A stretch of 63,995 nucleotides of DNA, counting the filler, from Acidimicrobiia bacterium (GTDB lineage Bacteria > Actinomycetota > Acidimicrobiia > Spongiisociales > CAZKJJ01): NCBI GenBank assembly GCA_046759765.1. It is 14 parts of 14 records of this genome, joined end to end, with 100 filler letters (N's around TTAATTAATTAA, not from the genome) between each part and the next. Parts side by side here need not be neighbours in the genome. Positions count along the whole stretch, not along the records: positions 55,801 to 60,139 come from JBHICV010000186.1; 13 more parts are not named here. One strand, 5' to 3'. Within the stretch, counting starts at the first letter, position 1; each line of letters begins with the position of its first letter. The notes under the pieces were generated by a model, which saw only the letters and a list, made by a program, of their open reading frames with translations, searched no databases and was not told the DNA's origin. The translations under genes and the position numbers were made by a program. This document shows positions 4,676 through 63,995 of this stretch, one piece after another.

Positions 4676-4818
4676 NNNNNNNNNNNNNNNNNNNNNNNNN
4701 NNNNNNNNNNNNNNNNNNNTTAATTAATTAANNNNNNNNNNNNNNNNNNNNNNNNNNNNNNNNNNNNNNNNNNNNTGGACCGTTGAGGCCACAACTCCCT
4801 AGCTCGGCGAGGGTTCGG

Positions 4819-4852
4819 GTAGCGCATATGACACTGAGCCGATATGGGCGGC
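4819..4852 (+). repeat. dif-like site copy A (12-nt spacer variant)
   Basis: GTAGCGCATAT-GACACTGAGCCG-ATATGGGCGGC; arms match copies at 7230, 8806, 56694 and 56802. Confidence 0.7.
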
Positions 4853-4861
4853 CGGAAGCAG

Positions 4862-5062
4862 TTATGGGCCGTCGTGGTTGATCCAGACGGGGCGGAGCGC
4901 CCGATCGAGCTCTTGGCTGACCTCGTCGAGCAGGTCGCTCCAACGTTCCCGCTCAGCGTCAGACCAGGCTGCGGAATGTTCTTCCCAGATCCGGCGCCAC
5001 TCCGCGAACTCGTTCTGAGCCTGGCGCATGCTCCGGATGCCCTTTTCAAACTCATCGGACAT
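4862..5062 (-). CDS. Small hypothetical protein (66 aa, MSDEFEKG...)
   Basis: Helical, charged ORF with an AGGGGG RBS; its stop lies 9 nt from dif-like site A. Confidence 0.55.
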   Translation of the reverse strand: MSDEFEKGIRSMRQAQNEFAEWRRIWEEHSAAWSDAERERWSDLLDEVSQELDRALRPVWINHDGP

Positions 5063-5289
5063 CAGTGCCCCCCTTTGTCGGGCTAACCGAGTTCGAACCG
5101 GCTGGTCAGTTCTGGTAACTCGTACCGGGTTCAGATCCGCACCGTAGGCCCGCCCAATCAGCAGCAACAGGGGCAAACGTCACCACCGGCCTTTACGCAA
5201 CGTCCCACCCGTTCGATGACAGGTCAGACTTCTGCCGGTCATCGAACGGAATATGGGCGCGCCTCAAGCCATGGCACCAGTGCATTTGT

Positions 5290-5474
5290 GATGCGATGAG
5301 GGAGTGGGCCTCCGGTCCCCGTTGACGTGTGTCCCCGATAGTCGGGTGTCAATCAAGCCCTCGAGAAGGGAGGCCCGTGTGTCACGTTACGTGGGAATCG
5401 ATTTGCTTCGCCGCCGTTCGGTGGTGGTGATCTTGGACGGGGGCGGCCGGATGCTGTCCTGGCGGAGAGTCGCG
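5290..5474 (+). mobile_element. IS110-family remnant: structured non-coding left end plus the first ~32 codons of the transposase
   Basis: GTG at 5379 after GAAGGGAGG gives VSRYVGIDLLRRRSVVVILDGGGRMLSWRRV, matching the YVGIDLH start of the DEDD RuvC-like domain. Similarity ends at the stop codon of the convergent ALS gene. Confidence 0.75.
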
Positions 5475-7115
5475 TCAGACCAGCATGGTCGAGCGGGGGT
5501 AAGCCACTTCCGGATCGGTGACCACGTTCACGAGAGCAGGCTTGTTGGATCCGAGCGCCCGCTCGATCGCGGGCCGGATGCCGCTGGGCTCGGTGACAAA
5601 CTCGCCATGGCCCCCGAGCGCCTCGACCACCAGGTCGTAGCGACATTCGGGCTGCAGGTCGGCGGCGACGTCGTGTCCGTAAAGGGCTCTCATCGGATGC
5701 TTCTCCAGACCCCAGATCCCGTTGTTGCCGACCACGGCCAGCACCGGGAGTTGGTGCCGTACCATCGTGTCGAAGTCCAAGCCGGAGAAACCGAAGGCTC
5801 CGTCTCCCATCAGAAGCATTACCTGGGCGGTGGGGTGGACGAGACGGGCCGCGATCGCGTATCCGGGTCCGCTGCCCAGGCAGCCGAAGGGACCGGTGTC
5901 CAGCCAACGGCCGGGTTGGCTCGACTTCACATACCTCCCAGCAAAGCTGACGAAGTCCCCGCCATCGCCCATGATGACCGCGTCGTCGTCGAGGATCTGC
6001 TCCAGCTCTCCGTAGATACGGGCCGGGTGGATCGGCATAGCCGCACTCGTGAGCTCAGCGCGGTCGGTGGCCCTTCTCGAGTCTTCTTCCTGCCGCAGGT
6101 GGTAGTGCCACTCATCCAGCGAGTTCGAACTGTCCACGAGTTCGGTTAGTGCGTCGAACATGCGGGCGAGACTTCCGGCCGCAGAGCCGGCAAGGTCGAC
6201 ATGAGTTGCCAGCTGCTCGGGCGCGTCAGCGAGATGCACCACCGAGGACGGTCCGAAGTCGCCGAAGCGAAGCCGGAAGTCGAGCGGGGTGCCGGCAACA
6301 ACCACCAGATCAGCATGAGAGAGCGCGAGCCCCCGTGCTCGGGCATAAGCGAGCGGGTGACCGGCGGGCATTGTGCCTCTAGCTGAGCCAGACGTGAACA
6401 CCGGCATCTGTGTTTTCTCGGCCAGCAATCGCATCGGCTCCCATGCCTCGTCGAAGTAGACGTCGGTTCCTGCCAAGAGAACCGGCGTCCGAGCATCGTC
6501 AATGAGGTTGGCGACCCGCGCGAGATCTCCTTCGTCGGCCTGCAGCATCTCGACCTCCGGTGGACTCCCCAGCTGGGCTGACGCAACAGCGGCTAGGGCG
6601 TCGATTCCGGCATCCAGGAACACCGGCCCCCGATGGGGAGTACAGGCCGCCACAACTGCCGTGTCCACCTGCATTGGGATCTTCCCGGTGGCGGTCACGG
6701 TCTCGGCCCGTTTTGTGATGGGAGCCATCACCGGGACGTGGTCGAGCTCTTGGAGGCTGCCCTGGCCCCACCGGAAGGCTGGTGCCCGGCCACCTACCAC
6801 CACCAGCGGTGACCCTGCGGCTTGGGCGCTGGCTACCGCAGAAGCTGCGTTGGTGACTCCCGGTCCTGCGGTGACGACCGCAACCCCGGGACGACGGGTC
6901 AGCTTGGCGATGCCTTCGGCGGCAAACACTGCCGTCTGCTCGTGCCGGGTGTCGACCAGTCGCACACCGGCCGCTACGCACGCGTCGTAGATGGGAAACA
7001 GATGACCTCCCGACAACGTGAAGATGGTGTCGACGCCATGGCGTTGGAGGGCGGCCACCAGGAGCTTGCCGCCGCTCCCTTCCACCTGATCTCGCTCCTT
7101 TGCTGCCGTGGCCAT
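5475..7115 (-). CDS. TPP-dependent acetolactate synthase-like / 2-hydroxyacyl-CoA lyase (IlvG-like) enzyme
   Basis: FTLSGGH, RHEQTAVFAA, TAGPG, GDGGDF, GPFGCLG and the GDGAFG...NNG TPP motif. Confidence 0.92.
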   Translation of the reverse strand: MATAAKERDQVEGSGGKLLVAALQRHGVDTIFTLSGGHLFPIYDACVAAGVRLVDTRHEQTAVFAAEGIAKLTRRPGVAVVTAGPGVTNAASAVASAQAAGSPLVVVGGRAPAFRWGQGSLQELDHVPVMAPITKRAETVTATGKIPMQVDTAVVAACTPHRGPVFLDAGIDALAAVASAQLGSPPEVEMLQADEGDLARVANLIDDARTPVLLAGTDVYFDEAWEPMRLLAEKTQMPVFTSGSARGTMPAGHPLAYARARGLALSHADLVVVAGTPLDFRLRFGDFGPSSVVHLADAPEQLATHVDLAGSAAGSLARMFDALTELVDSSNSLDEWHYHLRQEEDSRRATDRAELTSAAMPIHPARIYGELEQILDDDAVIMGDGGDFVSFAGRYVKSSQPGRWLDTGPFGCLGSGPGYAIAARLVHPTAQVMLLMGDGAFGFSGLDFDTMVRHQLPVLAVVGNNGIWGLEKHPMRALYGHDVAADLQPECRYDLVVEALGGHGEFVTEPSGIRPAIERALGSNKPALVNVVTDPEVAYPRSTMLV

Positions 7116-7229
7116 AGCCGCATCTCCCTTCACCTCGACCGACGGGCAGCCCTAGCAGCACGAATGTTCGGACCGCGCTTGCCAGAGCCGAAGCTACCCA
7201 GGGTGCTCGCACTGAGCTGACACCTCCGG

Positions 7230-7256
7230 CTAGCGCAATGTGCCGATGTGGGCGGT
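7230..7256 (+). repeat. dif-like site copy B
   Basis: CTAGCGCA-AT-GTGCCG-ATGTGGGCGGT (1-nt deletion in the left arm), intergenic. Confidence 0.7.
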
Positions 7257-7404
7257 CTGGCATGGGACGGGTGGATCGAGGTTCTCACTTTATTCCTGGG
7301 TCTCTGCAGACAACGGCACCGCCGAGCGTGTAGGTGAGCGTCAGTTGAGTGTTCCACCGGGGCTGCTTGAGCTGCGCTGGCAGGCGATTGTCGAGCTCAG
7401 ATCT

Positions 7405-8649
7405 TCATTCGGGTCCCGCGTAGCTTCCAGCCGTGTCGGGAAACATCGCCTTGATGACCTTGAAGCTGGACACGTCGACCGTGGCGTCCATGTGTAGGAA
7501 CACCGAGGCGTCCCGGAAGTACTTTTCGATGCCTACCTCGAGCATCGACCCGTTGCCGCCATGCAGTTCCATCGCCTGCCTGCAGACCTCCAAGATCTCT
7601 TCGGAGGCGAACACCTTGACCATGTTGCAGAGTTTGTCGGTGTCGGCCGCCTCTTCGTCAACTGCCTTCGCTGCGTGGCTCAGCAGCGCCCTGACGGCGT
7701 CTAGCTTGATCGCCATTTGAGCGAGGCGAACTGCCACCGCCTGGTGCTTGATGAGCACACGGCCGCCCTGCACGTGCTGCTGAACAAAGGCGGCCGTGTC
7801 CTCAAAGGCAGCAACGCCAACGCCCAGGTTCTTGGCTGCCTGGAGTATCTTTCCCGGCCGAAAATAGACAGCAGCCTTGCCCAGCGCATCATCCCGGGCA
7901 AGCAGGTGATCTTCGGGCACTCGGCAGTCCTCGAAGACGATCTCCCCGTTGTTCATGTAGCGCCCGCCGATGGTCTCGTTGCACCGGGTCACGACTAGGC
8001 CAGGAGTGTCGCGCGGCACGAGGAAGCTGCTCGTGCCCTCCAGTAAGCCAACCTGTGGGTTGGTGTTGGCATAAACGACAAAAAGGGACGCGTCGTAGCC
8101 GTTGCTGATGAACTGCTTGCGTCCGTTGATCGTCCAACGGCCGTCAGCCAGCACTGCCCGAGTGTCCATGTTGGCCTCGGGTACGTTGTAGGGAAGCCAA
8201 CGGTCCGATGCGCCTTTGGGCTCGGTGAGGCAATGGGCCATCAGGAATGACGGATTGTCCACGTAGCGGGGGAACCATTCTTCCTGGAGATGCTCGGGTG
8301 CCAGGGTCCGCAGCAGGACTGCGATCTTCCAGTTCTGAGCGAGCTTGTCAGCCAGACCCGCATCCCCTCGTGCGATCTCAGTGGCGATGATGGCGAACGT
8401 CTGCGCCTCGGTCCTGGGGTCGAGCTGTACTCCGCCGTAGCGCTCCGGCACCCCCAGGGACCGAAGCCCAGCCGCATCGGCACCTTCGAGGATCTCGGGA
8501 GGGAGCCGCTCCTCCGGCTCGAAGACCCACTCGCGCTCCCGGTTGGCCTGGATGAACGGGGTCACGACCCCGTCCACGAAGTCGCGGCAGGTCTGTTTCA
8601 TTAGCCGCTGCTCAACTGAAAGTTCCTGCTCCTGCATTGTCAACGTCAT
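7405..8649 (-). CDS. Acyl-CoA dehydrogenase family protein
   Basis: CLTEPKGASD, INGRKQFISNG, QGGRVLIKHQAV, ELHGGNG, EKYFRDA. Confidence 0.92.
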   Translation of the reverse strand: MTLTMQEQELSVEQRLMKQTCRDFVDGVVTPFIQANREREWVFEPEERLPPEILEGADAAGLRSLGVPERYGGVQLDPRTEAQTFAIIATEIARGDAGLADKLAQNWKIAVLLRTLAPEHLQEEWFPRYVDNPSFLMAHCLTEPKGASDRWLPYNVPEANMDTRAVLADGRWTINGRKQFISNGYDASLFVVYANTNPQVGLLEGTSSFLVPRDTPGLVVTRCNETIGGRYMNNGEIVFEDCRVPEDHLLARDDALGKAAVYFRPGKILQAAKNLGVGVAAFEDTAAFVQQHVQGGRVLIKHQAVAVRLAQMAIKLDAVRALLSHAAKAVDEEAADTDKLCNMVKVFASEEILEVCRQAMELHGGNGSMLEVGIEKYFRDASVFLHMDATVDVSSFKVIKAMFPDTAGSYAGPE

Positions 8650-8805
8650 TGCTTCCGCCTCCTTTGGCCTTGGATTTCTTGGTCTGCACCTTGACCCGGT
8701 TACAGGCCCAAACCTATCGAGGTTTTCAGAGCGGGCCCTTCGCATGGCCGTGACATCGGGACTATGGCCTCGAGCTCGGCTGCCTACCTACCGCCTGCCA
8801 TCCGA

Positions 8806-8833
8806 GTGGAGCACATGTGCCGATATGGGCGGG
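8806..8833 (+). repeat. dif-like site copy C
   Basis: GTGGAGCACAT-GTGCCG-ATATGGGCGGG, intergenic. Confidence 0.75.
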
Positions 8834-8911
8834 TAATGCGATCGTTTAGTGAAGACAGGCCTGGAGAGCGCGGAAAGGGCGCTCCGACTTGGCGCCGGCA
8901 AGTGTTAGACG

Positions 8912-9265
8912 TCAGCCAGCGAGGCGGCGCTGAAGAGCGGCAGCCACGTTCGTATAAATCTGCCTTCGTCTGAAGTGTCCGAGATGGCGCTGGGACGGTG
9001 CCAGGAAGCCGGACCAAGGAATAACTACTAGCCCTGGCCGGTCGAGCACCTCAGCGCAAGGAGGCCGGTAATCAGACCAAACCTGGTGGACCACAACGGC
9101 ATCAGGCACCTCTGTTACCAAGCACGGCGCTCCCACAGCGGACGGACAATCGGCCATCGTCGCTGCAGGACAAGACCCGACCGTGAATCCGGCCTCGTCT
9201 AGGGACTGGCGCATTCGATCAAGCATGACATCAGAGGACGGGCCCACGACCAGAACGGTGCTCAC
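8912..9265 (-). CDS. Hypothetical Cys-containing protein (117 aa) with receiver-like N-terminus
   Basis: GTG start after GGGAGGG; STVLVV...L.EAGFTV.SCP......CP......C pattern. Confidence 0.55.
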   Translation of the reverse strand: MSTVLVVGPSSDVMLDRMRQSLDEAGFTVGSCPAATMADCPSAVGAPCLVTEVPDAVVVHQVWSDYRPPCAEVLDRPGLVVIPWSGFLAPSQRHLGHFRRRQIYTNVAAALQRRLAG

Positions 9266-9536
9266 ATATCCCTCCCGCACGGGAACCAAGAATTGCCGCC
9301 GGTACTCACCCTTGTGTCTGGCATTCCTCCTCGCTAGGGCCGAAGGTCCCCGAAGCCACAATCCAGCCGGGAGTGCCAATGACTGGAGTTCCCCCTTCTG
9401 GCCGGACACCTTGGTTATGCGGCCATGGTGTTGGTGNNNNNNNNNNNNNNNNNNNNNNNNNNNNNNNNNNNNNNNNNNNNTTAATTAATTAANNNNNNNN
9501 NNNNNNNNNNNNNNNNNNNNNNNNNNNNNNNNNNNN

Positions 9537-55700: not shown

Positions 55701-55812
55701 NNNNNNNNNNNNNNNNNNNNNNNNNNNNNNNNNNNNNNNNNNNNTTAATTAATTAANNNNNNNNNNNNNNNNNNNNNNNNNNNNNNNNNNNNNNNNNNNN
55801 GGTCGGTTAACG

Positions 55813-56580
55813 CTAGATGCGTTGACCAACCCAATGAAAGAGGCGGCTTAGCTGCCGGTAAGGATCACGACGACTTGCCTCCAATTCGACCGCTTGCACA
55901 TCGGAGACCTCGTCCTCATCGATGTCTTCTTCGACCCAGCCGTCGGTGAATAGTCGTACTCCGTACCACTCGATCAGCTCGACACCAATCAGGCGCATTC
56001 TGTCGGTCAGCGTCTCGATGGAATCCGCTCGAGTCTGCCTCCCGAGCCGATTGATCTCTCCTTCGGCACCGAACTGCGACAACGCTTCCCTCCATCTCCC
56101 GTCAAGCGCAGGTCGCACCACTAAGCCGGCCTGACTCTTGCCCACGATGGAAACCAGCCCGTGTGGTCTGGCCAGCCCGGCCAGAGCATCCAGCATTCCA
56201 CTGGGATCAGACAGATACGGAACTACTCCGTGGCATAAGACAGCATCGAACCGTTCGTCCAGGACCCCAGGAGCATCCTCACCGGCAGCTTCAACCAGGG
56301 TCACCCGAGCGGCGACCTCCGGAGGCTGCGAGGCAAGAACACGTTCGGCCCGTTCCAGCATCGACGGCGACGAATCGACAATCGTGACCCGATAGCCGCG
56401 TCGTGCCAAAGGGATCGACTGATTGCCAGCACCGCCGCCGACATCGACAATCGCCGCCGGTGGACCTGGGAGATGCGACGCCAAGTGCTGTTCGATGACA
56501 TACAGCCGAACACGGCCATGAAGAGATCGGTAATGCTTGTCAACGAAGGTGTCCGCGATCTCGGCCCAATCATCCGTCAC
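55813..56580 (-). CDS. SAM-dependent methyltransferase (CmoM/SmtA-like)
   Basis: Y..L.GRVR, VDVGGGAG, VD.S..ML, FD.VLCHGV, YGVR.FTD, RRDPYR. Confidence 0.9.
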   Translation of the reverse strand: MTDDWAEIADTFVDKHYRSLHGRVRLYVIEQHLASHLPGPPAAIVDVGGGAGNQSIPLARRGYRVTIVDSSPSMLERAERVLASQPPEVAARVTLVEAAGEDAPGVLDERFDAVLCHGVVPYLSDPSGMLDALAGLARPHGLVSIVGKSQAGLVVRPALDGRWREALSQFGAEGEINRLGRQTRADSIETLTDRMRLIGVELIEWYGVRLFTDGWVEEDIDEDEVSDVQAVELEASRRDPYRQLSRLFHWVGQRI

Positions 56581-56693
56581 GCCGATTGAGGATACGAGTC
56601 CACCTGGCTACGCAGGGATTCAAATGGGAGGAGACTCCGCCCAAACTTGCGAGCGAAATGACCGCAGATGTGTGCGGCCAACGCCCGACTCTG

Positions 56694-56721
56694 GGTACGC
56701 ATATGTGCCGATATGGGCGGT
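56694..56721 (+). repeat. dif-like site copy D (best copy)
   Basis: GGTACGCATAT-GTGCCG-ATATGGGCGGT; CATAT/ATATG inverted arms around a 6-bp core. Confidence 0.8.
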
Positions 56722-56801
56722 TCATTCCTCGAGGAAGACGACGCTGTTGAGAATCGGGTTGACAGTCTCCTCCAGGTACTCGTCGAAGGCGGATACGCGA
56801 A
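56722..56801 (-). pseudogene. Orphan 3' tail of a gene lying between dif-like sites E and D
   Basis: ...SAFDEYLEETVNPILNSVVFLEE*; the TGA at 56722-56724 abuts site D. Confidence 0.5.
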
Positions 56802-56828
56802 GTAGCGCATATTTGCCAGTGGGGAGGT
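56802..56828 (+). repeat. dif-like site copy E
   Basis: GTAGCGCATAT-TTGCCA-GTGGGGAGGT; left arm identical to copy A. Confidence 0.6.
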
Positions 56829-57071
56829 GAGTCGCCGGCGTCGGGCGGGAAGCGTGGGAAACAGACGGAACTTATCCCAGGTTGGGTGTGATGAGTACTC
56901 CTAGAGGTATTGGGATGACACCCCGCACCGTGTTGCACACGTTAGGCGCCCTCGCACTGACCACTGCGGCGTGTAGCGGCGACGGGACAACGCAGGCTTC
57001 AGGACCGCCCACCTCCGCAGTGGCCCGACCGCCCGCCACCGCGCCGCTGGTACCAAGCCGAACCGGCGCTG

Positions 57072-57296
57072 CCGACCACGGAGGAGAACATCGCTTGGAC
57101 CCGTTCCACCTACGCAGCCATGGAGCCGTATCTTGCCCAACGGCGGTGGCTGAATTACCTCGCCGATGACGATGACGATGATGCGGTTCGGGCCGCATAC
57201 GGGCCCAACTACGAGCGGCTCGCCGGGGTGAAACGAAAGTACGACCCGGACAACTTGTTCCGCCTCAACCACAATATCGAGCCCGCTGCTGCTTAG
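57072..57296 (+). pseudogene. C-terminal (BBE domain) fragment of a FAD-linked oxidase
   Basis: ENIAWTR.TY.AM.PY...WLNYL...VRAAYGPNYERLA.VKRKYDPDNLFRLNHNI.P*; the FAD-binding domain is missing. Confidence 0.88.
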
Positions 57297-57427
57297 CCTG
57301 AGGGCCCGCTCAGGCCCCTCCTGGCGCATACCGCCCATCAGCGGCAGGTTCTCAGCCAGATCCATGATGCGCGAGATCCAGCAACAGGAGCGGCCTCCTG
57401 CGGCTCCTCCCGATCAGCTTCGGGAGT

Positions 57428-58045
57428 TCACAGCTCTTTTTGGAGGTCCGATATCCAGAACACCGCATACTCGCCGCGGAGGGCGTGGTCGGGGTTCATG
57501 CACAGAACCACGAATGTGCCGGCGACGTTACCGGCGACAAACCTGAGGCCGGGTTTGCCCGCCGTGGCCAAACCGCTGCCCTCTGCTCCTGGCGCAACGG
57601 TCTCGGTGAAGAGGTAGCTGATCGTATAACCCTCGTCGTCGACCTCTACCAACGCGTGGGCAGGGAGTTCAGGTTCGTCCTCGTCTCCGTCTCCGGGATG
57701 GAAGTGCCCCACTTTCCCGCTTTCCTCGCCGGGGTAGATCAGTTGGGCGAGACCTGGTGGATTCACAAGTCCGGCAACCAGGTCGACCGTACCCTGCGCC
57801 TCGAGGTGTCTCTCAAGCTCTTCGATCGTCAGCCGGGTAGATACCACGATGGGCTGGTGGGTCTCGGAACCCTGGTTCGAGAACGTGAACTCGAGCGTGG
57901 CCACATCCTCGAAGGCCATCGGGTCGACGGACCAAGCCCCCTCGGTCATGAAGACTGTGACCTCCTGGGAGCCGCCAGCGGCACAACCGGCCAGGAGTGC
58001 AGCACCGACGATTGCGGCTGAGATGAACTGTTTCGATCTACGCAT
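57428..58045 (-). CDS. Cupredoxin-like lipoprotein with atypical axial ligand
   Basis: Lipobox LAGC; N.G...H and G.FVVLCMNPDHALRGE. Confidence 0.7.
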   Translation of the reverse strand: MRRSKQFISAAIVGAALLAGCAAGGSQEVTVFMTEGAWSVDPMAFEDVATLEFTFSNQGSETHQPIVVSTRLTIEELERHLEAQGTVDLVAGLVNPPGLAQLIYPGEESGKVGHFHPGDGDEDEPELPAHALVEVDDEGYTISYLFTETVAPGAEGSGLATAGKPGLRFVAGNVAGTFVVLCMNPDHALRGEYAVFWISDLQKEL

Positions 58046-59345
58046 AGTTCACCGCATCTATCTGAGTGTCCGCCTGCTCTCGGGGCCGATCGTCCACGCC
58101 TCGGAGCACTACCCGGGCGACGGCAATGAGGACAACCAAGGCAGCCATGGCAAAGCTACGGCCCAGACCCAGCGCCACGACGATGATCAGCCAAAGCAAG
58201 GGTCCGAGCCAAGTGGCGAACCGGCCCACGGTGGCATACAGCCCGTAGAACTCACCTAGATGCTTGGGCGGCGAGATTCGCGCCATGTAAACGCGGTCCG
58301 ATGCCCAGGTAGCGCCCAACGCCAGGCCACCGACAGGACCGAGCAGCCAGCCCAGGCCCGGGGCGTCGATGGTGGCGGCGACGATGCCGACTGATATCGC
58401 TGCAATCCAGACATAAAGCGCCAGGTGCAAGACGCGGCGGGGTCCGTAGTAGTCCACCAGACGGCCGGAGCCGAGGCCTCCGATGATCGAAGCACCTATC
58501 GCGATGGCCAGGAGCTGTTGCACTTCCTCGAGTTGGAATCCCAGTTCGTTGAGCAGGAATAGCGTCAGAAAACCGGCGATGAGGGTGTTGATGGCATCGG
58601 TGTAGAAGAAGCGACCGATCAGAAAGCGCGTCACACCTGGGAAGGCTCGGGTCCTACGCCACGACCTTACGAGGTGCGCCATGACCGCTCGGAATGCGGG
58701 GGCGCCCGGTCGTGGCGGGCGAGGTCTTTCCTGGATGAAGAACAATGCTGGGAGAGCAAAGAGCAGGAAGAGCAACGCAACGGTCCGGAAGTAAGCCGCG
58801 TAGCCGAGGCGGTCCACGACCAATACGCCGGCGATAAGTGCGATCGCCGAGCCCAGGTAGCCGACACCCACCCCAAGCCCGGACACGAGCCCGCGATTCC
58901 CTGGGGTGCTCACATCGGGGAGGAGTGCGTCATACACGACCGAGCCCAGGTTGAAACCAATCAAGCCGACAACCAGGAACACCAACGAGGGCAGCACACC
59001 GAACGTGGCCAGAAAGAAGGTGGCGCCGACCGCCAGCACAGTCGTGGAGATCAGATAAGGGATACGTCGGCCGGCAAAGTCCGATCGGGCTCCGATCCAG
59101 GGGCCGAGGACAATCGCGGCGAGCATTGCCACTGAAATCGTGACGGCCAACCTCAGGTCGGAGACCTCGGAAGGCAGCGTGTCGGTGACGCTCGAATCAG
59201 GCTCTCCCTGCACTGAGACGAGCCAAGCGGGAAAGTAGAGGCCGAGGACACCGAGGGCTAAGATCGTGTTGGCCAGGTCGAACAGCACCCAGGACCCGGT
59301 GCTGCGTCTGGACGGCTCCAACCCGGGTGTTGCTGAGCGCTTCAT
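58038..59345 (-). CDS. MFS transporter (Atg22/UMF1-like)
   Basis: W.LFDLANT, YDALLP.V, SG.G...GYLG, P....GEFYGLY. Confidence 0.92.
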   Translation of the reverse strand: MKRSATPGLEPSRRSTGSWVLFDLANTILALGVLGLYFPAWLVSVQGEPDSSVTDTLPSEVSDLRLAVTISVAMLAAIVLGPWIGARSDFAGRRIPYLISTTVLAVGATFFLATFGVLPSLVFLVVGLIGFNLGSVVYDALLPDVSTPGNRGLVSGLGVGVGYLGSAIALIAGVLVVDRLGYAAYFRTVALLFLLFALPALFFIQERPRPPRPGAPAFRAVMAHLVRSWRRTRAFPGVTRFLIGRFFYTDAINTLIAGFLTLFLLNELGFQLEEVQQLLAIAIGASIIGGLGSGRLVDYYGPRRVLHLALYVWIAAISVGIVAATIDAPGLGWLLGPVGGLALGATWASDRVYMARISPPKHLGEFYGLYATVGRFATWLGPLLWLIIVVALGLGRSFAMAALVVLIAVARVVLRGVDDRPREQADTQIDAVNYA

Positions 59346-59457
59346 TCCCCGTTCTCCTCGAGTCCTCATTCGGTCACTCCTCAGCCCACCGTATGGGCGG
59401 AGAGCCGACCGATCTATCGGGGAGATCCCTTATGGCGTAGAAAGCGCTTCTGGAGCT

Positions 59458-60139
59458 TCAGCTGGTAGCAGCCAACCCGCGACCGCTGGCCCAGATCACC
59501 ACCTCTTGCCGGTTGGTGAGCTGGAGCTTGCGGAAGACGCTTCGCAGCTGGGATTCGACTGTCTTGGGGGAGGTCGACAGGCGCCTGGCAATCTCCTTGT
59601 TGGTCAGTGCGCGAGACACCAGGCTCACCACTTCGAGTTCTCTTGGTGTGAGCAGATCGACGCGGGGATCCACAACGTCGGGGCCTTCAGGTCCGAGGGC
59701 CGTTCTGATGAGGTCAGCGAGCTTTGGCGAGTAGACGATCGCGCCCGTCGCTGCCGTGATTACTTGTGGGACGAAATCCTCCCGGTGGACGTCTTTGGTG
59801 AGGTATCCCAACGCGCCGGCGCGAATCATGGGGATCACGTCTGTCGGCTTGTCGTACGCCGAGAGGGCCAGGAAGTGGATATGTGGATGCGTCGCCTTGA
59901 CCGCCTTGACGACTGCCAGTCCCCCGCCGCCAGGCATCCGGACGTCCACAAGTACCAGGTCCGGTTCTCGTTCCCGGATCAGCTCGATGGCCGCTGGTAC
60001 GTCGTCGGCCTCTCCAACGATGTCGACCGCCTCGCCGAGCACCCCACGGGCCCCCGCTCTCATCAGATCGTGATCGTCCACGAGGAATACCCGTGCGCGT
60101 GACTGGTCTGCCAGCCCTGCCGGCTTGGTACGTAGCGGT
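59458..60139 (-). CDS. NarL/LuxR family response regulator, 5' end truncated
   Basis: VFLVDDH, D.RMPG, GA.GYL.K, LTPRE.EV, TN.EIA..L..S.KTV. Confidence 0.93.
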
Positions 60140-60518
60140 NNNNNNNNNNNNNNNNNNNNNNNNNNNNNNNNNNNNNNNNNNNNTTAATTAATTAANNNNN
60201 NNNNNNNNNNNNNNNNNNNNNNNNNNNNNNNNNNNNNNNATACCTTTGCCGGCGGTGAATCCACCGGCAGTGCCGGCTGGACCGGTTGGCCCAGTTGGCG
60301 GACCCGCACGGACAAAATCCTGGAGGCGTTCTTTCCTCTGAAAGCGAAGAACTGAAGGGCTGCGCGCGACTCCGTACAAGCGGGCTACCAGCCACTGTGA
60401 TGGCTCAGGAAGTGGGCTGCAGGATTAGGCACCGACGGAATCCGTGGTCGAGAACTGGTTTGACGAACTCCCGGGGCAGCCCCCGGTCTGGAGGGGGACC
60501 CGCCGGCCAAGGGCCTTG

Positions 60519-63500
60519 TTACGGCCCCCACTCTACGAGCACCTCGATGTAGTCGGCCTTTGTCTTCTTGCCGTTGAAGGCGTTGTTCTTGATTCGAAGC
60601 TCCAGCCCGTCGATTCTGGCGTGGGTGCCGACCGCGCCGGTCACGTCCCAGGAGTCCTGCGCCTCGTTCTTCTCGTCCTTCCGGAGCAGGATCGAGGGGT
60701 TCGTGGACCAAACCTGGGGACTCGCCGGCCAGCCTGTGCCGGCCTGCCACTCCAGGCTCCCTTGGAAGTCATTCTCCTCCCAGTGCTCGACGCGCACCTC
60801 GACCTTCGTGATCTTCGCGCCGGCCGGTATCGCTACGTCGGAGAATTGATAGGAGGTGAAGTACCCTTCCTCGATCTCCCACCACTCGTTGTCGCTCGTC
60901 TGCACCGTGTAGGTCTTGCCGTCCTCCTCGAGGGTCTTCTCGTTCTTCTGGTCCCAGCCGTCAAGGACGGTCAGCACGGCCGAGCCGGGGGGGATGCTGG
61001 ACTTTTCGTTCACCGTGATCGTGACGGTGCCCGGGGCGCTGTCCACGGTGCCGTCGTTCGTCTTGAAGGTGAAGCTGTCGGTGCCGAAGAAGCCCGCGTT
61101 GGGGGTGTAGGTCAGGTTCGGGGCCGGTCCGCTCATCGTGCCGTTCGCGGGCAGAGTCAGCACGGTGAAGGTCAGGGGATCCCCGTCCGCGTCGCTCGCC
61201 GTCAAGGTGACGGCCACCGGAGTGTCCTGATCGGTGGTCACCGACTGGTCGTCGGCCGTGGGCGCGTCGTTCACCGCCGTCACCGTGATCGACACGGTGG
61301 CCGGCAGGCTGTCGGCCAGGCCGTCGTTCACCTTGAAGGTGAAGCTGTCCGAGCCGTTGAAGTCCGCCTTCGGCGCGTAGGTCAGGTTCGGGGCCGTGCC
61401 CGACAGCGTCCCGTTCGCGGGCTGGCTCAGCACGGTGAAGGTCAGGGGATCGCTGTCCAGGTCGCTCCCGGTCAGCGTGATCGCCTTCGGCGTATCCTCG
61501 GCCGTCGTCACCGACTGCGGATCGGCCGTTGGCGGGTTGTTCGGGGCCACGGTCATCGTCACCGTCCCCAGGTTGCTATCCAGCACGCCGTCGTTCGCCT
61601 TGAAGGTGAAGCTGTCGGTCCCGCTGAAGCCCGCGTTCGGGGTGTAGGTGAGGTTTGGAGGCGTGCCGCTCAGCAGCCCGTTGGTCGGAGCCGTCGCGAC
61701 TGCGTAGGTCAAGGGATCGCCGTCGGCGTCGCTCGCCGCCAGCGTGATTGCGACGGGCTCGCCCTGCTTCGTCGAGACCTGCTGGTCCTGGGCCACGGGC
61801 GCGTCGTTGACCGCGGTCACCGTGATCGAGACCGTGGCCGGGGCGCTGTCCACCGTGCCGTCGTTCACCTTGAAAGTGAAGCTGTCGGAGCCGTTGAAGT
61901 CCGCGTTCGGGCTGTAGGTGAGGTTGGGGGCCGTGCCGCTCAGCGTCCCGTTCGCGGGCTGGCTCAGCACGGTGAAGGTCAGGGGATCGCCGTCCAGGTC
62001 GCTCCCGGTCAGCGTGATCGCCTTCGGCGTATCCTCGGCCGTCGTCGCCGACTGCGGATCGGCGACGGGCGGCTGGTTGGTAGGCGCGGTGGTCCAGCTG
62101 ACGTACACGGAGATGTAGTCCACCAACGTCTTCTTGCCGTTGGTGCCGTTGTTGACGACCAAGAGCTCCAGGGCGTTGATTCGGGCCGGGGTGTTGACCG
62201 CGGCCGTCACGTCCCCGGAGTCTTGCGTCTCGTTGCTTTCGCCCTTCCGGAGCGGGACCGAGTCGTTCGTGGCCCACACCTGCGGGCTCGCCGGCCAGCC
62301 CGTGCCAGCCTGCCACCGCACGCTTCCCTTGAAGCCCTTCTCCTCCCAGTGCTCCACCTGGATCACGACCGAGGTGATGGTCGCGCCGGCCGGGACGGCG
62401 GCGTCGGAGAACTGATAGGAGGTGAAGAATGCATCCTCGGTCTCCCACCAGTCGTCGTCGCTGGCCTGCAGCACGTAGACCTTGCCTTCCTGCAGCAGAG
62501 TCGTTTCGTTCTTTTGGTCGTAGCCGTCGGTGACGGTGAGCGTCGCGGACTCACCGGGCGGAGGGGCCGAGGCGGCCGCCGCGTCGGCGTCCACGAGGCC
62601 GTTGCCGACCCACTCGGCGGGCAGCCCGAGGTCCTCGGCGGTCTGGTTCATCCGGTCGCGGACCTCGTCGTTGATCCGTCCGTTGAGGTTCTGGTCCGTG
62701 ATCCCGGAGGCGATCACCAGGGCGCCGGTGCCGGCCACGTGTGGCGTGGCCATCGAGGTGCCGCTGCCGAGGCCGTACCCGCCCCCGAGCAGGGTCGAGT
62801 TGATGTCCACCCCCGGGGCCGCGATCTCCACGTCGGGGCCGGTGCTGGAGAAGCAGGGCACGCCGTCGGTGCTGTTCGTCGCCGCCACGGCGATGACCGA
62901 GGCGTACCTTGCGGGGAAGTTGACGCTGTCGCCGGTGCCGGCGCAGTTGCCGGCGTTGTCCGCCGCCGCCACGTTCAGGAGGCCGGCCGCCTCCGCGTTG
63001 TCGAAGGCCTGCTTGACCGTGAGTCCGGGGTCGCCCAGGCTGCCGTAGCTGTTGTTCGTGACCTGCATCCCGTTGTCCACGGCCCACTGCAGCGCGGCGA
63101 TGATGTCGCTGTAGTTCCCGTTGCCGAACTGGTCCAGCACCTTGAGGACGTAGAGGCTCGCCTCCGGGGCGACCCCCACCAGGCCCGCGTTGTCGTCCTC
63201 GGCCGCGATCGAGCCGGCCACGTGGGTGCCGTGGCCCTCGTCGTCCATCGGGTCGGCGTCGTTGTTGACGAAGTCGTGGCCGCCCGCGAAGTTGGCGTTG
63301 AGGTCCGGATGGATGTAATCGATCCCTGAGTCGAGGACCGCCACCTTCACCCCCAGACCGAGGTTGGCCCCGTCGTGCACGAGGCCGGAGCCGATGCGCT
63401 TGACGCCCCAGGAGTTGTCCAGCTCCGCGTCGAGGGCATGCACCTGGAGGTCCAGGTCCACCCTTTGCACGAGGAAGTTTTCCGTCAGCTCGACCAGGGC

Positions 63501-63740
63501 CGACTCGGGCACGGTCGCCGCGATGGCGGGGACCAGGTGGTAGACGTACTTGAGCGTGCCGCCCAGCTCGAGGATGTCCTCCACGTCGAAATCGTCCGGA
63601 TCGTCGTAGTAGGCGATGATGACGTCGACGGGCGCGCTCGAGCCCTGAGCGGCCGGGTTACCTTGCGCCGCCGCGGGGCGGGCCAGCGGCAGCGCGGCGA
63701 GAGTGAGGCTCAGGAAAACGGAAAGAGTTTTCTTTGCCAT
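60519..63740 (-). CDS. Secreted subtilisin (S8) with I9 prodomain, four Ig-like (Big_9/cadherin-like) repeats and a duplicated uncharacterised domain
   Basis: Signal peptide; VAVLDSG, HGTHVAG, GTSMATP triad; four N..P.A...D.DGDPLT...P.NGTLSG..PNLTY.P..F.G.DSFTFK.NDG repeats. Confidence 0.93.
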   Translation of the reverse strand: MAKKTLSVFLSLTLAALPLARPAAAQGNPAAQGSSAPVDVIIAYYDDPDDFDVEDILELGGTLKYVYHLVPAIAATVPESALVELTENFLVQRVDLDLQVHALDAELDNSWGVKRIGSGLVHDGANLGLGVKVAVLDSGIDYIHPDLNANFAGGHDFVNNDADPMDDEGHGTHVAGSIAAEDDNAGLVGVAPEASLYVLKVLDQFGNGNYSDIIAALQWAVDNGMQVTNNSYGSLGDPGLTVKQAFDNAEAAGLLNVAAADNAGNCAGTGDSVNFPARYASVIAVAATNSTDGVPCFSSTGPDVEIAAPGVDINSTLLGGGYGLGSGTSMATPHVAGTGALVIASGITDQNLNGRINDEVRDRMNQTAEDLGLPAEWVGNGLVDADAAAASAPPPGESATLTVTDGYDQKNETTLLQEGKVYVLQASDDDWWETEDAFFTSYQFSDAAVPAGATITSVVIQVEHWEEKGFKGSVRWQAGTGWPASPQVWATNDSVPLRKGESNETQDSGDVTAAVNTPARINALELLVVNNGTNGKKTLVDYISVYVSWTTAPTNQPPVADPQSATTAEDTPKAITLTGSDLDGDPLTFTVLSQPANGTLSGTAPNLTYSPNADFNGSDSFTFKVNDGTVDSAPATVSITVTAVNDAPVAQDQQVSTKQGEPVAITLAASDADGDPLTYAVATAPTNGLLSGTPPNLTYTPNAGFSGTDSFTFKANDGVLDSNLGTVTMTVAPNNPPTADPQSVTTAEDTPKAITLTGSDLDSDPLTFTVLSQPANGTLSGTAPNLTYAPKADFNGSDSFTFKVNDGLADSLPATVSITVTAVNDAPTADDQSVTTDQDTPVAVTLTASDADGDPLTFTVLTLPANGTMSGPAPNLTYTPNAGFFGTDSFTFKTNDGTVDSAPGTVTITVNEKSSIPPGSAVLTVLDGWDQKNEKTLEEDGKTYTVQTSDNEWWEIEEGYFTSYQFSDVAIPAGAKITKVEVRVEHWEENDFQGSLEWQAGTGWPASPQVWSTNPSILLRKDEKNEAQDSWDVTGAVGTHARIDGLELRIKNNAFNGKKTKADYIEVLVEWGP

Positions 63741-63908
63741 GGCGGGGCGTTGTCTACCATAGCATGACCGAACGTGAGAGCCACAATATCGAGCGTTCAA
63801 GAGAAGCCACGATGTCAATATCTTGGGGCTCTGTGAGTTTGGGATCCATTAACTTGGACAATACCACTGGTTTGTATAATTAGCAAGGTCATCTGAGCGG
63901 AGCAAGAC

Positions 63909-63995
63909 ATGCGGCGAGTTTCATGGCTGGTTTTCGTGTTTAGTCTCTTATGGGGATATTCGTGGGCCGAACCCCCCGAGCGGATTCAGGTGGTT
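63909..63995 (+). CDS. Start of a secreted protein, truncated by the window end
   Basis: MRRVSWLVFVFSLLWGYSWA signal peptide; GGAG RBS; TATAAT at 63875. Confidence 0.6.
   Translation, partial: MRRVSWLVFVFSLLWGYSWAEPPERIQVV

Follow-up and report, generated by a model that had tools for sequence, protein, structure and literature searches.

The stretch at 55801-60139 probably represents the eroded end of an integron-like system for gene swapping, which is predicted to have its own Xer-like enzyme. On balance, we favor the reading that, of its two recognizable sites, D is an intact copy of a 28-bp site ending single-gene cassettes and E a broken one, and that a recombinase family here labeled IntX excises and inserts these cassettes as double-stranded circles in the manner of Cre. 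A wider interpretation is tentative: one actinobacterial order may harbor a second, independently evolved gene-cassette machine with one Xer-like recombinase and two orthogonal lox-like sites, S1 for single genes and S2 for mini-arrays and the machine's own gene, in which orphan arrays of up to ~100 sites would revive when the enzyme returns.

Data and Scoring

The window, that is, the whole stretch of 63,995 nucleotides that was analyzed, consists of joined MAG contigs of an Acidimicrobiia bacterium (GCA_046759765.1, hereafter G000); 55801-60139 is contig C186 and 4776-9436 is C174. Site scores come from a PWM for which only other genomes served as training data (290 S1 and 100 S2 contexts), against a background of 2.07 Mb of G000 contigs without arrays. 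S1 is a 28-bp site with an 11-bp arm, the spacer GTGCCG and another 11-bp arm; S2, the second site class, has arms as in S1 and the spacer CCGGCA. IntX denotes an Xer-like tyrosine recombinase family flanked by S1/S2-type sites. A literature search found no paper describing this site system. Among the matches listed in one scan of other records, some titles name other classes.

Sites and Gene Debris on C186

Features of C186 (positions in the window)
Feature	Position	Strand	Basis
SAM-dependent methyltransferase	55813-56580	-	Pfam Methyltransf_11; 91% paralog on C109
D, intact lone S1 site	56694-56721	+	11-6-11 layout, independent PWM
Orphan gene tail, 80 bp, stop codon against D right arm	56722-56801	-	Coding score
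E, half site (consensus left arm and 4/6 spacer, without right arm)	56802-56818	+	PWM
Lipoprotein N-terminal piece	56915-57075	+	ORF; cut at junction without site
FAD oxidoreductase C-terminal BBE piece, fused to lipoprotein piece	57075-57296	+	Pfam BBE, E 3e-14
Predicted lipoprotein, 205 aa, accessory	57428-58045	-	ORF
MFS transporter	58038-59369	-	Extra copy, 80% aa
LuxR-type response regulator, runs off contig	59458-60139	-	ORF, Pfam

The initial annotation assigned D and E to a family of dif-like sites at the borders of gene cassettes, an assignment that holds; the locus is a decayed one. D is a full site copy, as proposed: it scores 37 bits and exceeds all background positions. It has no S2 partner upstream, folding reveals no hairpin there (z 0.2), and no variants of it were seen across four runs. 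A loose end at 56699 in run X1 was considered as a D recombinant and rejected, as it is the paralogous site of C109. E had been described as a 27-bp copy, which is correct for its left arm (56802-56812, equal to the consensus, P = 5e-7, PWM against background) and for four of the six spacer bases; its right arm is background (P = 0.06). In one run, E has another left neighbor, from 56840. Since contigs of four out of four runs (one study) span D, the tail and E at 99-100%, the arrangement is no assembly artefact.

The interior between D and E was read as a gene tail with its TGA at D, and it is indeed coding-like in that frame (score 15.9 versus -2.1±4.1 for shuffles, P = 0.0005). The coding signal begins at ~56793, within ~10 bp of E, and ends at D. 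The tail adjoins the outer edge of the E arm, not the E spacer, a junction that crossover in the spacer leaves unexplained; in exchanged cassettes, the spacer is where the break falls. No parent gene of the tail was found in 300 other genomes, nor any homolog by a word-index search, a weak one with a 48-aa query that included non-tail residues. The sole library-wide match, a repetitive 2614-aa protein of eukaryote type, was taken as spurious; the weakly matching sequence on C21 (E 0.11) is another orphan fragment. Atlas clues point only toward PsbP/DcrB-type proteins.

The second site cluster claimed for C186 shrinks to one full and one half site that pass the PWM. The degenerate copies at 56606 and 57321 and the half sites at 58037 and 59391 face, at best and per contig strand, at least 8, 0.6-4, 7 and 0.8 expected chance matches, respectively; that at 58037 sits within the overlap of the MFS gene stop and the next gene start. 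A further S2-like match at 57367 is also at chance level (1.1 expected). The GGTCGGT at the contig start, taken for the end of an arm, aligns to spacer DNA of the C109 paralog, 64 bp short of its site, and is therefore no arm. The methyltransferase is likely cassette cargo, and as the site of its paralog lies 64 bp past the shared segment, its own left site would probably lie just beyond the contig end, at a predicted ~65-95 bp to the left of 55801.

Debris was said to be bounded by the sites. This is true of the 80-bp D-E fragment and not of the other block (56830-57320, encoded on the plus strand), whose break at 57075 coincides with no site; FAD oxidoreductase homology begins at ~57078, and run X1 carries different DNA beyond 57075. 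The four intact genes all lie on the minus strand, as noted before. The 205-aa lipoprotein has no Pfam match and no significant adjoining site in the PWM scan, and the other MFS copy in G000 is syntenic with relatives. The supposed gene-to-site polarity does not hold as a rule: right of sites, 120 genes have the stop and 108 the start toward the site, and left of sites the counts are 107 and 99. Relatives have several separate arrays far apart, so linkage of C186 to contig 4776-9436 is not implied. Beyond an intact site, a half site and the 80-bp relic, the locus itself adds little; the relic may be informative about cassette formation or decay.

The Site Family and Its Cassettes

G000 bears 31 site copies of at least 25 bits on 18 contigs; three shuffled genomes have none of at least 14 bits. 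Of 301 genomes from the order, 33 have arrays, as against none of 224 from other orders; one genome (G061) has 102 sites. All sites share the same strand in 12 of 12 multi-site contigs. Strong copies occur on accessory contigs of small size; C21 is the only contig of at least 10 kb to have one, at its end. The median inter-site unit is 828 bp, with about one accessory gene each. Many site copies begin with GTAG and are near-palindromic, and IS30- and IS110-type elements are inserted into sites; a XerD-like arm beside the C259 and C274 sites proved to be the end of an IS110 element.

Near-identical cassettes occur in differing neighborhoods, and the break falls in the 6-bp spacer. Among 152 inter-site units, eight pairs are at least 99% identical over the whole unit, six of which differ in at least one flank. 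For a 1718-bp unit shared by L284 and L295, and likewise for a 277-bp unit present three times in L125, the copies agree in their inner arms but not in their outer ones, and a scan found no S2 inside either unit. Moreover, G024 and G094 carry a cassette of 99.6% identity at different places. On one replichore of G094, four loci point in one direction and one in the opposite direction; in G123, divergent arrays occur. The single chromosomal dif of G000 is at C31:1150-1177. In G014, dif lies at 1,587 kb and sites at 113, 524 and 1,491 kb; in G123, dif lies at 1,397 kb and sites at 1,662 and 2,186-2,190 kb.

S2 lies upstream of 76 of the 319 S1 copies and downstream of none, at a distance of 43-47 bp (65 cases) or 32-35 bp (10 cases), two classes about one helical turn apart. 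Where a lone S2 has visible flanks, S1 is upstream in 14 of 15 cases and downstream in one; the background is 0 in 4.1 Mb. A terminal S2 is found at just 14 of 31 array ends.

A Candidate Recombinase

In L287 and L289, IntX is flanked by S1 sites in inverted orientation, from which the arrays extend outward. A TGCCG core is found 3' of 23 of the 25 IntX genes, the opposite core in 11 of 25, against a background of 30%; the test of the upstream core is weak (15/21 versus 9/21 in the control). IntX is present in 10 of 33 site-bearing and 21 of 268 other genomes (P = 6e-4, Fisher's exact test, with kin that are not independent). At E<=1e-40 it was not found in 23 of the 33 site-bearing genomes; none was found in G000, G024, G094 or G224, and G265 and G177 retain only remnants. 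The family keeps the catalytic residues, aligns to XerD/XerA, lacks the IntI-type insertion (73 bits on TIGR02249, cut-off 265) and is 30-32% identical to host XerC/XerD; G000 itself has XerC and XerD genes. IntX is the likely enzyme of the cassette system.

Proposed Mechanism and Alternatives

IntX is predicted to work as Cre does on lox sites, so that cassettes would leave and enter as double-stranded circles. Single cassettes would move by recombination of S1 with S1, and entire mini-arrays of the form S2-[17 bp or IntX gene]-S1-(cassette-S1)n-cargo-S2 by that of S2 with S2; the differing spacers would hold the two reactions apart. The arrays of G000 would be orphans, served by IntX only when it is present. 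At C186, the methyltransferase cassette would end at D and the 80-bp relic would occupy the D-E interval, E would have lost its right arm, and the DNA to its right may have decayed through ordinary deletion. Points against the IntX model are its absence from G000 and most other site-bearing genomes, including G024 and G094 with their shared cassette, the weak upstream core test, the few terminal S2, the S2-S1 hairpins described below, the invariance of D in four runs and the position of the tail at the E arm. With one enzyme and two 28-bp sites named, the system is directly testable by plasmid assay, and S1 and S2 could serve as a naturally occurring orthogonal pair for recombination.

The same cassette system could be run by host XerC, with or without XerD, and IntX be a passenger. 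The S1 right arm equals, at 9 of 11 bases, the arm of the G000 dif that we take from the dif layout to be the XerC side, and cassettes moved recently in genus g20, where none of the seven genomes has an IntX match. However, no site arm is similar to that on the XerD side of dif, we know of no XerC action without XerD, the arrays are distant from dif, and spacer cores accompany IntX even in array-free genomes. We consider this alternative rather unlikely. We also consider it unlikely, and slightly more so, that S2, loop and S1 fold as a single strand in which two staggered bases flip out, as in integron attC or CTX-phage attP, and recombine by a single strand exchange that replication resolves. 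This would yield the same array layouts, lone terminal S2 included, and S2-S1 pairs do fold as strong hairpins (z -4.9 to -7.1 in three of three tested), their spacers pairing over five bases with one bulge per strand. Yet covariation of the arms is not significant (outer P = 0.40, inner P = 0.04), nor is the pairing of S2 arms with the upstream cassette start expected under the integron rule (P = 0.15, n = 30). The fixed 45/34-bp spacing suits double-stranded phasing, 243 of 319 S1 copies lack S2, including D and recently moved cassettes, arrays go both ways at one locus, and the IntI insertion is missing from IntX.

The initial annotation read C186 as a turnover hotspot with six or seven sites, at which insertion and truncation of cassettes had occurred repeatedly. 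The coding signal that runs from close to E up to D and the differing neighbor of E in one run would fit such a history, but four of the six sites in that list, like the contig-start motif, are chance-level matches or misreadings, only one of two debris blocks ends near a site, the 57075 junction has none, and truncation at E is not checkable by homology because the parent gene of the tail was not found; we think a hotspot improbable. Less credible still is a dispersed REP-like palindrome that attracts insertion sequences but takes no part in site-specific exchange of cassettes. Its appeal lies in the near-palindromic, GTAG-initial copies and the IS30- and IS110-type insertions. Against it, a Y1/RAYT transposase was matched in none of five array genomes (control 6/14; the assemblies are incomplete), orientation is strictly direct instead of dispersed inverted pairs between core genes, identical cassettes change neighbors at the spacer, and the sites flank a tyrosine recombinase.

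Comparison with Known Systems

The arrays resemble integrons and CALINs in their directly oriented sites with about one accessory gene each, in the tyrosine recombinase that lies beside some arrays while many have none, and in their IS insertions. For Actinobacteria, the portion of PMC4889954 available to us reports no complete integrons. The site here is a short, conserved 28-bp sequence, whereas attC sites are variable palindromes with GTT/AAC cores; the window has no Rfam match but a tRNA. Cassette genes here face either way (120 versus 108; 107 versus 99) instead of being mostly co-oriented like those of integrons, which are read from a platform promoter, IntX is without the IntI insertion (TIGR02249 73 versus 265), and a second spacer class brackets the arrays.

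The pdif modules of Acinetobacter (dif modules of XerC/XerD) similarly have 28-bp 11-6-11 sites that bound gene modules, with crossover in the spacer. Their recombination needs identical spacers, and spacer identity sets the partners, according to the accessible part of PMC13141974. A pdif site, however, joins one XerC and one XerD arm, whereas both arms here are XerC-like; pdif orientation alternates around C and D modules, whereas direct repeats are found here in 12 of 12 contigs, and the spacer here is invariant and the arrays chromosomal. In Cre/loxP, two like arms surround an asymmetric spacer that gives direction, and lox variants with different spacers would give independent reactions; the arrays here differ in being natural and multi-cassette, with site numbers between tens and 100 in a genome and a Xer-like enzyme. 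IMEX at dif (CTX phage and kin) have tandem dif-like sites and possibly a hairpin substrate, whereas the present arrays occupy several loci distant from the chromosomal dif and have no XerD arm. Overall, the arrays look like a convergent substitute for integrons, built from Xer-type parts.

The Locus and Its Sites

The initial annotation saw a second cluster of dif-like sites at 55801–59401, a turnover hotspot with debris bounded by the sites. The locus lies on C186, one of the MAG contigs joined in the window; the host is probably an acidimicrobial actinobacterium, judging in part by protein names. All six proposed sites were scored with a PWM built from other genomes, and array-free contigs of the source genome G000 served as background. 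Site D reaches 37 bits on this independent PWM and holds as a full dif-like site; it has no partner of the second site class S2. At E, taken as a further copy, the left arm and partial spacer pass, but the remainder fails. The degenerate and half sites at 56606, 57321, 58037 and 59391 have a chance expectation of 0.6 to 8 or more per contig strand, and 58037 is just the overlap of one stop codon with one start codon. The contig-start motif, read as an arm, is ordinary spacer DNA; a 91% paralog on C109 meets its site just 64 bp beyond. The locus is the decayed margin of a single array, and the greater part of the local detail proposed for it is not real.

The 80-bp D-E interval resembles coding sequence in the frame proposed for a gene tail (p=0.0005), the signal starting ~10 bp from E with none across E itself. 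Searches for a parent gene returned none, and the Atlas neighbours, PsbP/DcrB-type proteins, are a lead only. Stop codons near a right arm are frequent: among 120 genes with the stop toward one, 36 terminate no more than 10 bp away. The D-tail-E stretch is spanned almost unchanged by contigs of 4/4 runs, hydrothermal-vent metagenomes of one study that may contain the stretch's source, and one run shows a different neighbour of E from 56840. E may have arisen when a 108-bp mini-cassette entered a poor site, or its right arm may have been lost later; it is not among the IS-split sites. Right of E, a plus-strand lipoprotein start is fused at 57075 to a BBE tail, with no site at the junction. Run X2 shares this junction. 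In run X1, 31 letters are added at 57050 (region 57046–57075) and different DNA follows 57075, so that population probably carries a longer or intact lipoprotein gene. The MFS gene duplicates a core gene as a spare copy and has no significant site close to it.

The Cassette System

The cassette system behind the locus is real and directly testable. Its 28-bp site S1 (spacer GTGCCG between 11-bp arms) has 31 strong copies in G000 (2.73 Mb, 308 contigs, 92% complete), on 18 mostly short contigs and in a single orientation on 12/12 multi-site contigs. The exact 16-base core turns up in 33 of the order's 301 genomes, against 0 for the reversed control, and in 9/76 same-order versus 0/224 other-order genomes of a class-wide sample. 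G061 has 102 copies of the site. Gene orientation relative to the sites is mixed. Arrays, several per near-complete genome, are not located at dif but far from it. The candidate dif of G000 is a separate single copy; one of its arms shares 9 of 11 bases with the S1 right arm, and the other has no counterpart anywhere in the repeats. Matching single dif sites occur in G002, G003, G006, G054, G014 and G123, and the same pattern finds none in three genomes of genus g20.

In G000, the likeness between paralogous genes on C217, C263, C254 and C117 (87–90%) ends at or inside sites, beyond which the neighbours differ. A comparison of 152 inter-site units across genomes yielded 19 homologous pairs. 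In eight of these, identity over the whole length is at least 99%; two of the eight have both flanks in common, and six have at least one different flank. Inner arms are identical in the informative pairs and outer arms are not, so the crossover falls in the spacer; a cassette therefore comprises spacer, right arm, gene and left arm. From these alignments we infer cassette swapping. Short cassettes without a clear gene also recur in several arrays, possibly as RNA or regulatory cassettes.

S2 has the same arms around CCGGCA. With counts deduplicated by sequence context, it lies upstream of 76 of 319 S1 sites, at ~45 or 34 bp, and downstream of none. Lone S2 make up 36 of the 103 S2 sites; among 15 with enough visible flank, S1 is upstream in 14 and downstream in 1. 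S2 closes 14/31 array ends (background 0 in 4.1 Mb). G000 has one clear S2-S1 pair (C217) plus a few decayed pairs.

Many "half sites" elsewhere prove to be full S1 sites that elements with presumed IS30-like ends have interrupted at the centre of the spacer, leaving a 2-base duplication. Such splits suggest that IS30 elements target S1. The C293 fragment matches IS30 at E 8e-5, below the cut-off, and full IS30 transposases are present in other arrays. IS110 appears to target S2: on C259 its transposase terminates against an S2 right arm.

Coordinates of features in the window, in G000 and in other genomes and site-bearing loci (L)
Feature	Location	Remark
Site D	56694–56721	
Gene tail	56722–56801	
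Site with extra-base footprint	4818–4852	2–6 extra bases kept at some sites
1099-aa subtilase-like protein	60240–63995 (G000:C201)	repeated domains, higher GC (0.66), AT-rich end; may originate in another organism of the bin
Candidate dif	G000:C31:1150–1177	
S1 split at spacer centre	G000:C97:4095–4109, C117:585, C274:59–74, C293:148–161, C115:6990, C197:3509	presumed IS30-like ends, 2-base duplication
S1 split at spacer centre	L073, L078, L096, L107	same pattern
S2 right arm joined directly to IS110-type ends	L023 (G000:C259), L026 (C274), L106, L149	17 bp before S1
S2-S1 ... S1 ... S2 layout	L097, L116, L256, L287, L292	
Short cassettes, no clear gene	L112:276–2530, L313, L181	165–200 bp, 76–86% identity
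IntX gene between inverted S1	L287:2667–3860, L289:10451–11467	
215-aa tyrosine recombinase	G024:C5:21697–22143, G094:C7:2645950–2646396	catalytic domain only
Further PF00589 matches	G000:C33, C54, C71, C76, C96, C127, C194, C214, C227, C245, C299	

Candidate Enzyme and Proposed Mechanism

IntX is a 307-aa Xer-like protein (PF00589 + PF02899), 30–32% identical to host XerC/XerD, that retains R-K-H-R-H-Y and lacks the IntI-type insertion. Its gene immediately adjoins sites; at L249–L260 it lies between a CGGCA and a TGCCG core whose outer arms vary, and at L287 and L289 arrays extend outward from the inverted S1 sites that flank it. There it is possibly invertible by its own product, as an on/off switch. 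IntX is enriched with sites (10/33 site-bearing versus 21/268 other genomes, overlap counted by hand). Relatives number thousands in metagenomes (7905/8000 candidates scored), with two on Pseudonocardia plasmids. Besides XerC/XerD, G000 has twelve PF00589 matches, mostly phage- or island-type integrases and none IntX.

We lean toward double-stranded, lox-like recombination, in which IntX would act on duplex S1 and S2 sites and the two spacers would be orthogonal, because cassettes without S2 moved recently, the S2-S1 distances are one helical turn apart, the arms show no covariation and IntX has no single-strand-binding insertion. S2-S1 folds well into a hairpin, and a hairpin as substrate predicts identical array layouts; we consider that model improbable. 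Against IntX as the enzyme, none is found in G000, G024, G094 and G224, and only remnants in G265 and G177; both G024 and G094 carry arrays and the 215-aa recombinase. Host XerC could act instead, which is unlikely.

Comparison with Known Systems

The system is apparently undescribed, the full-text literature searched, outside which most subscription papers lie, containing no description of it. A search of five array genomes for RAYT found none. In its working the system is similar to integrons and CALINs, but it does not match them in IntI, attC or orientation; in build it is similar to pdif, without the XerD arm and without alternation.
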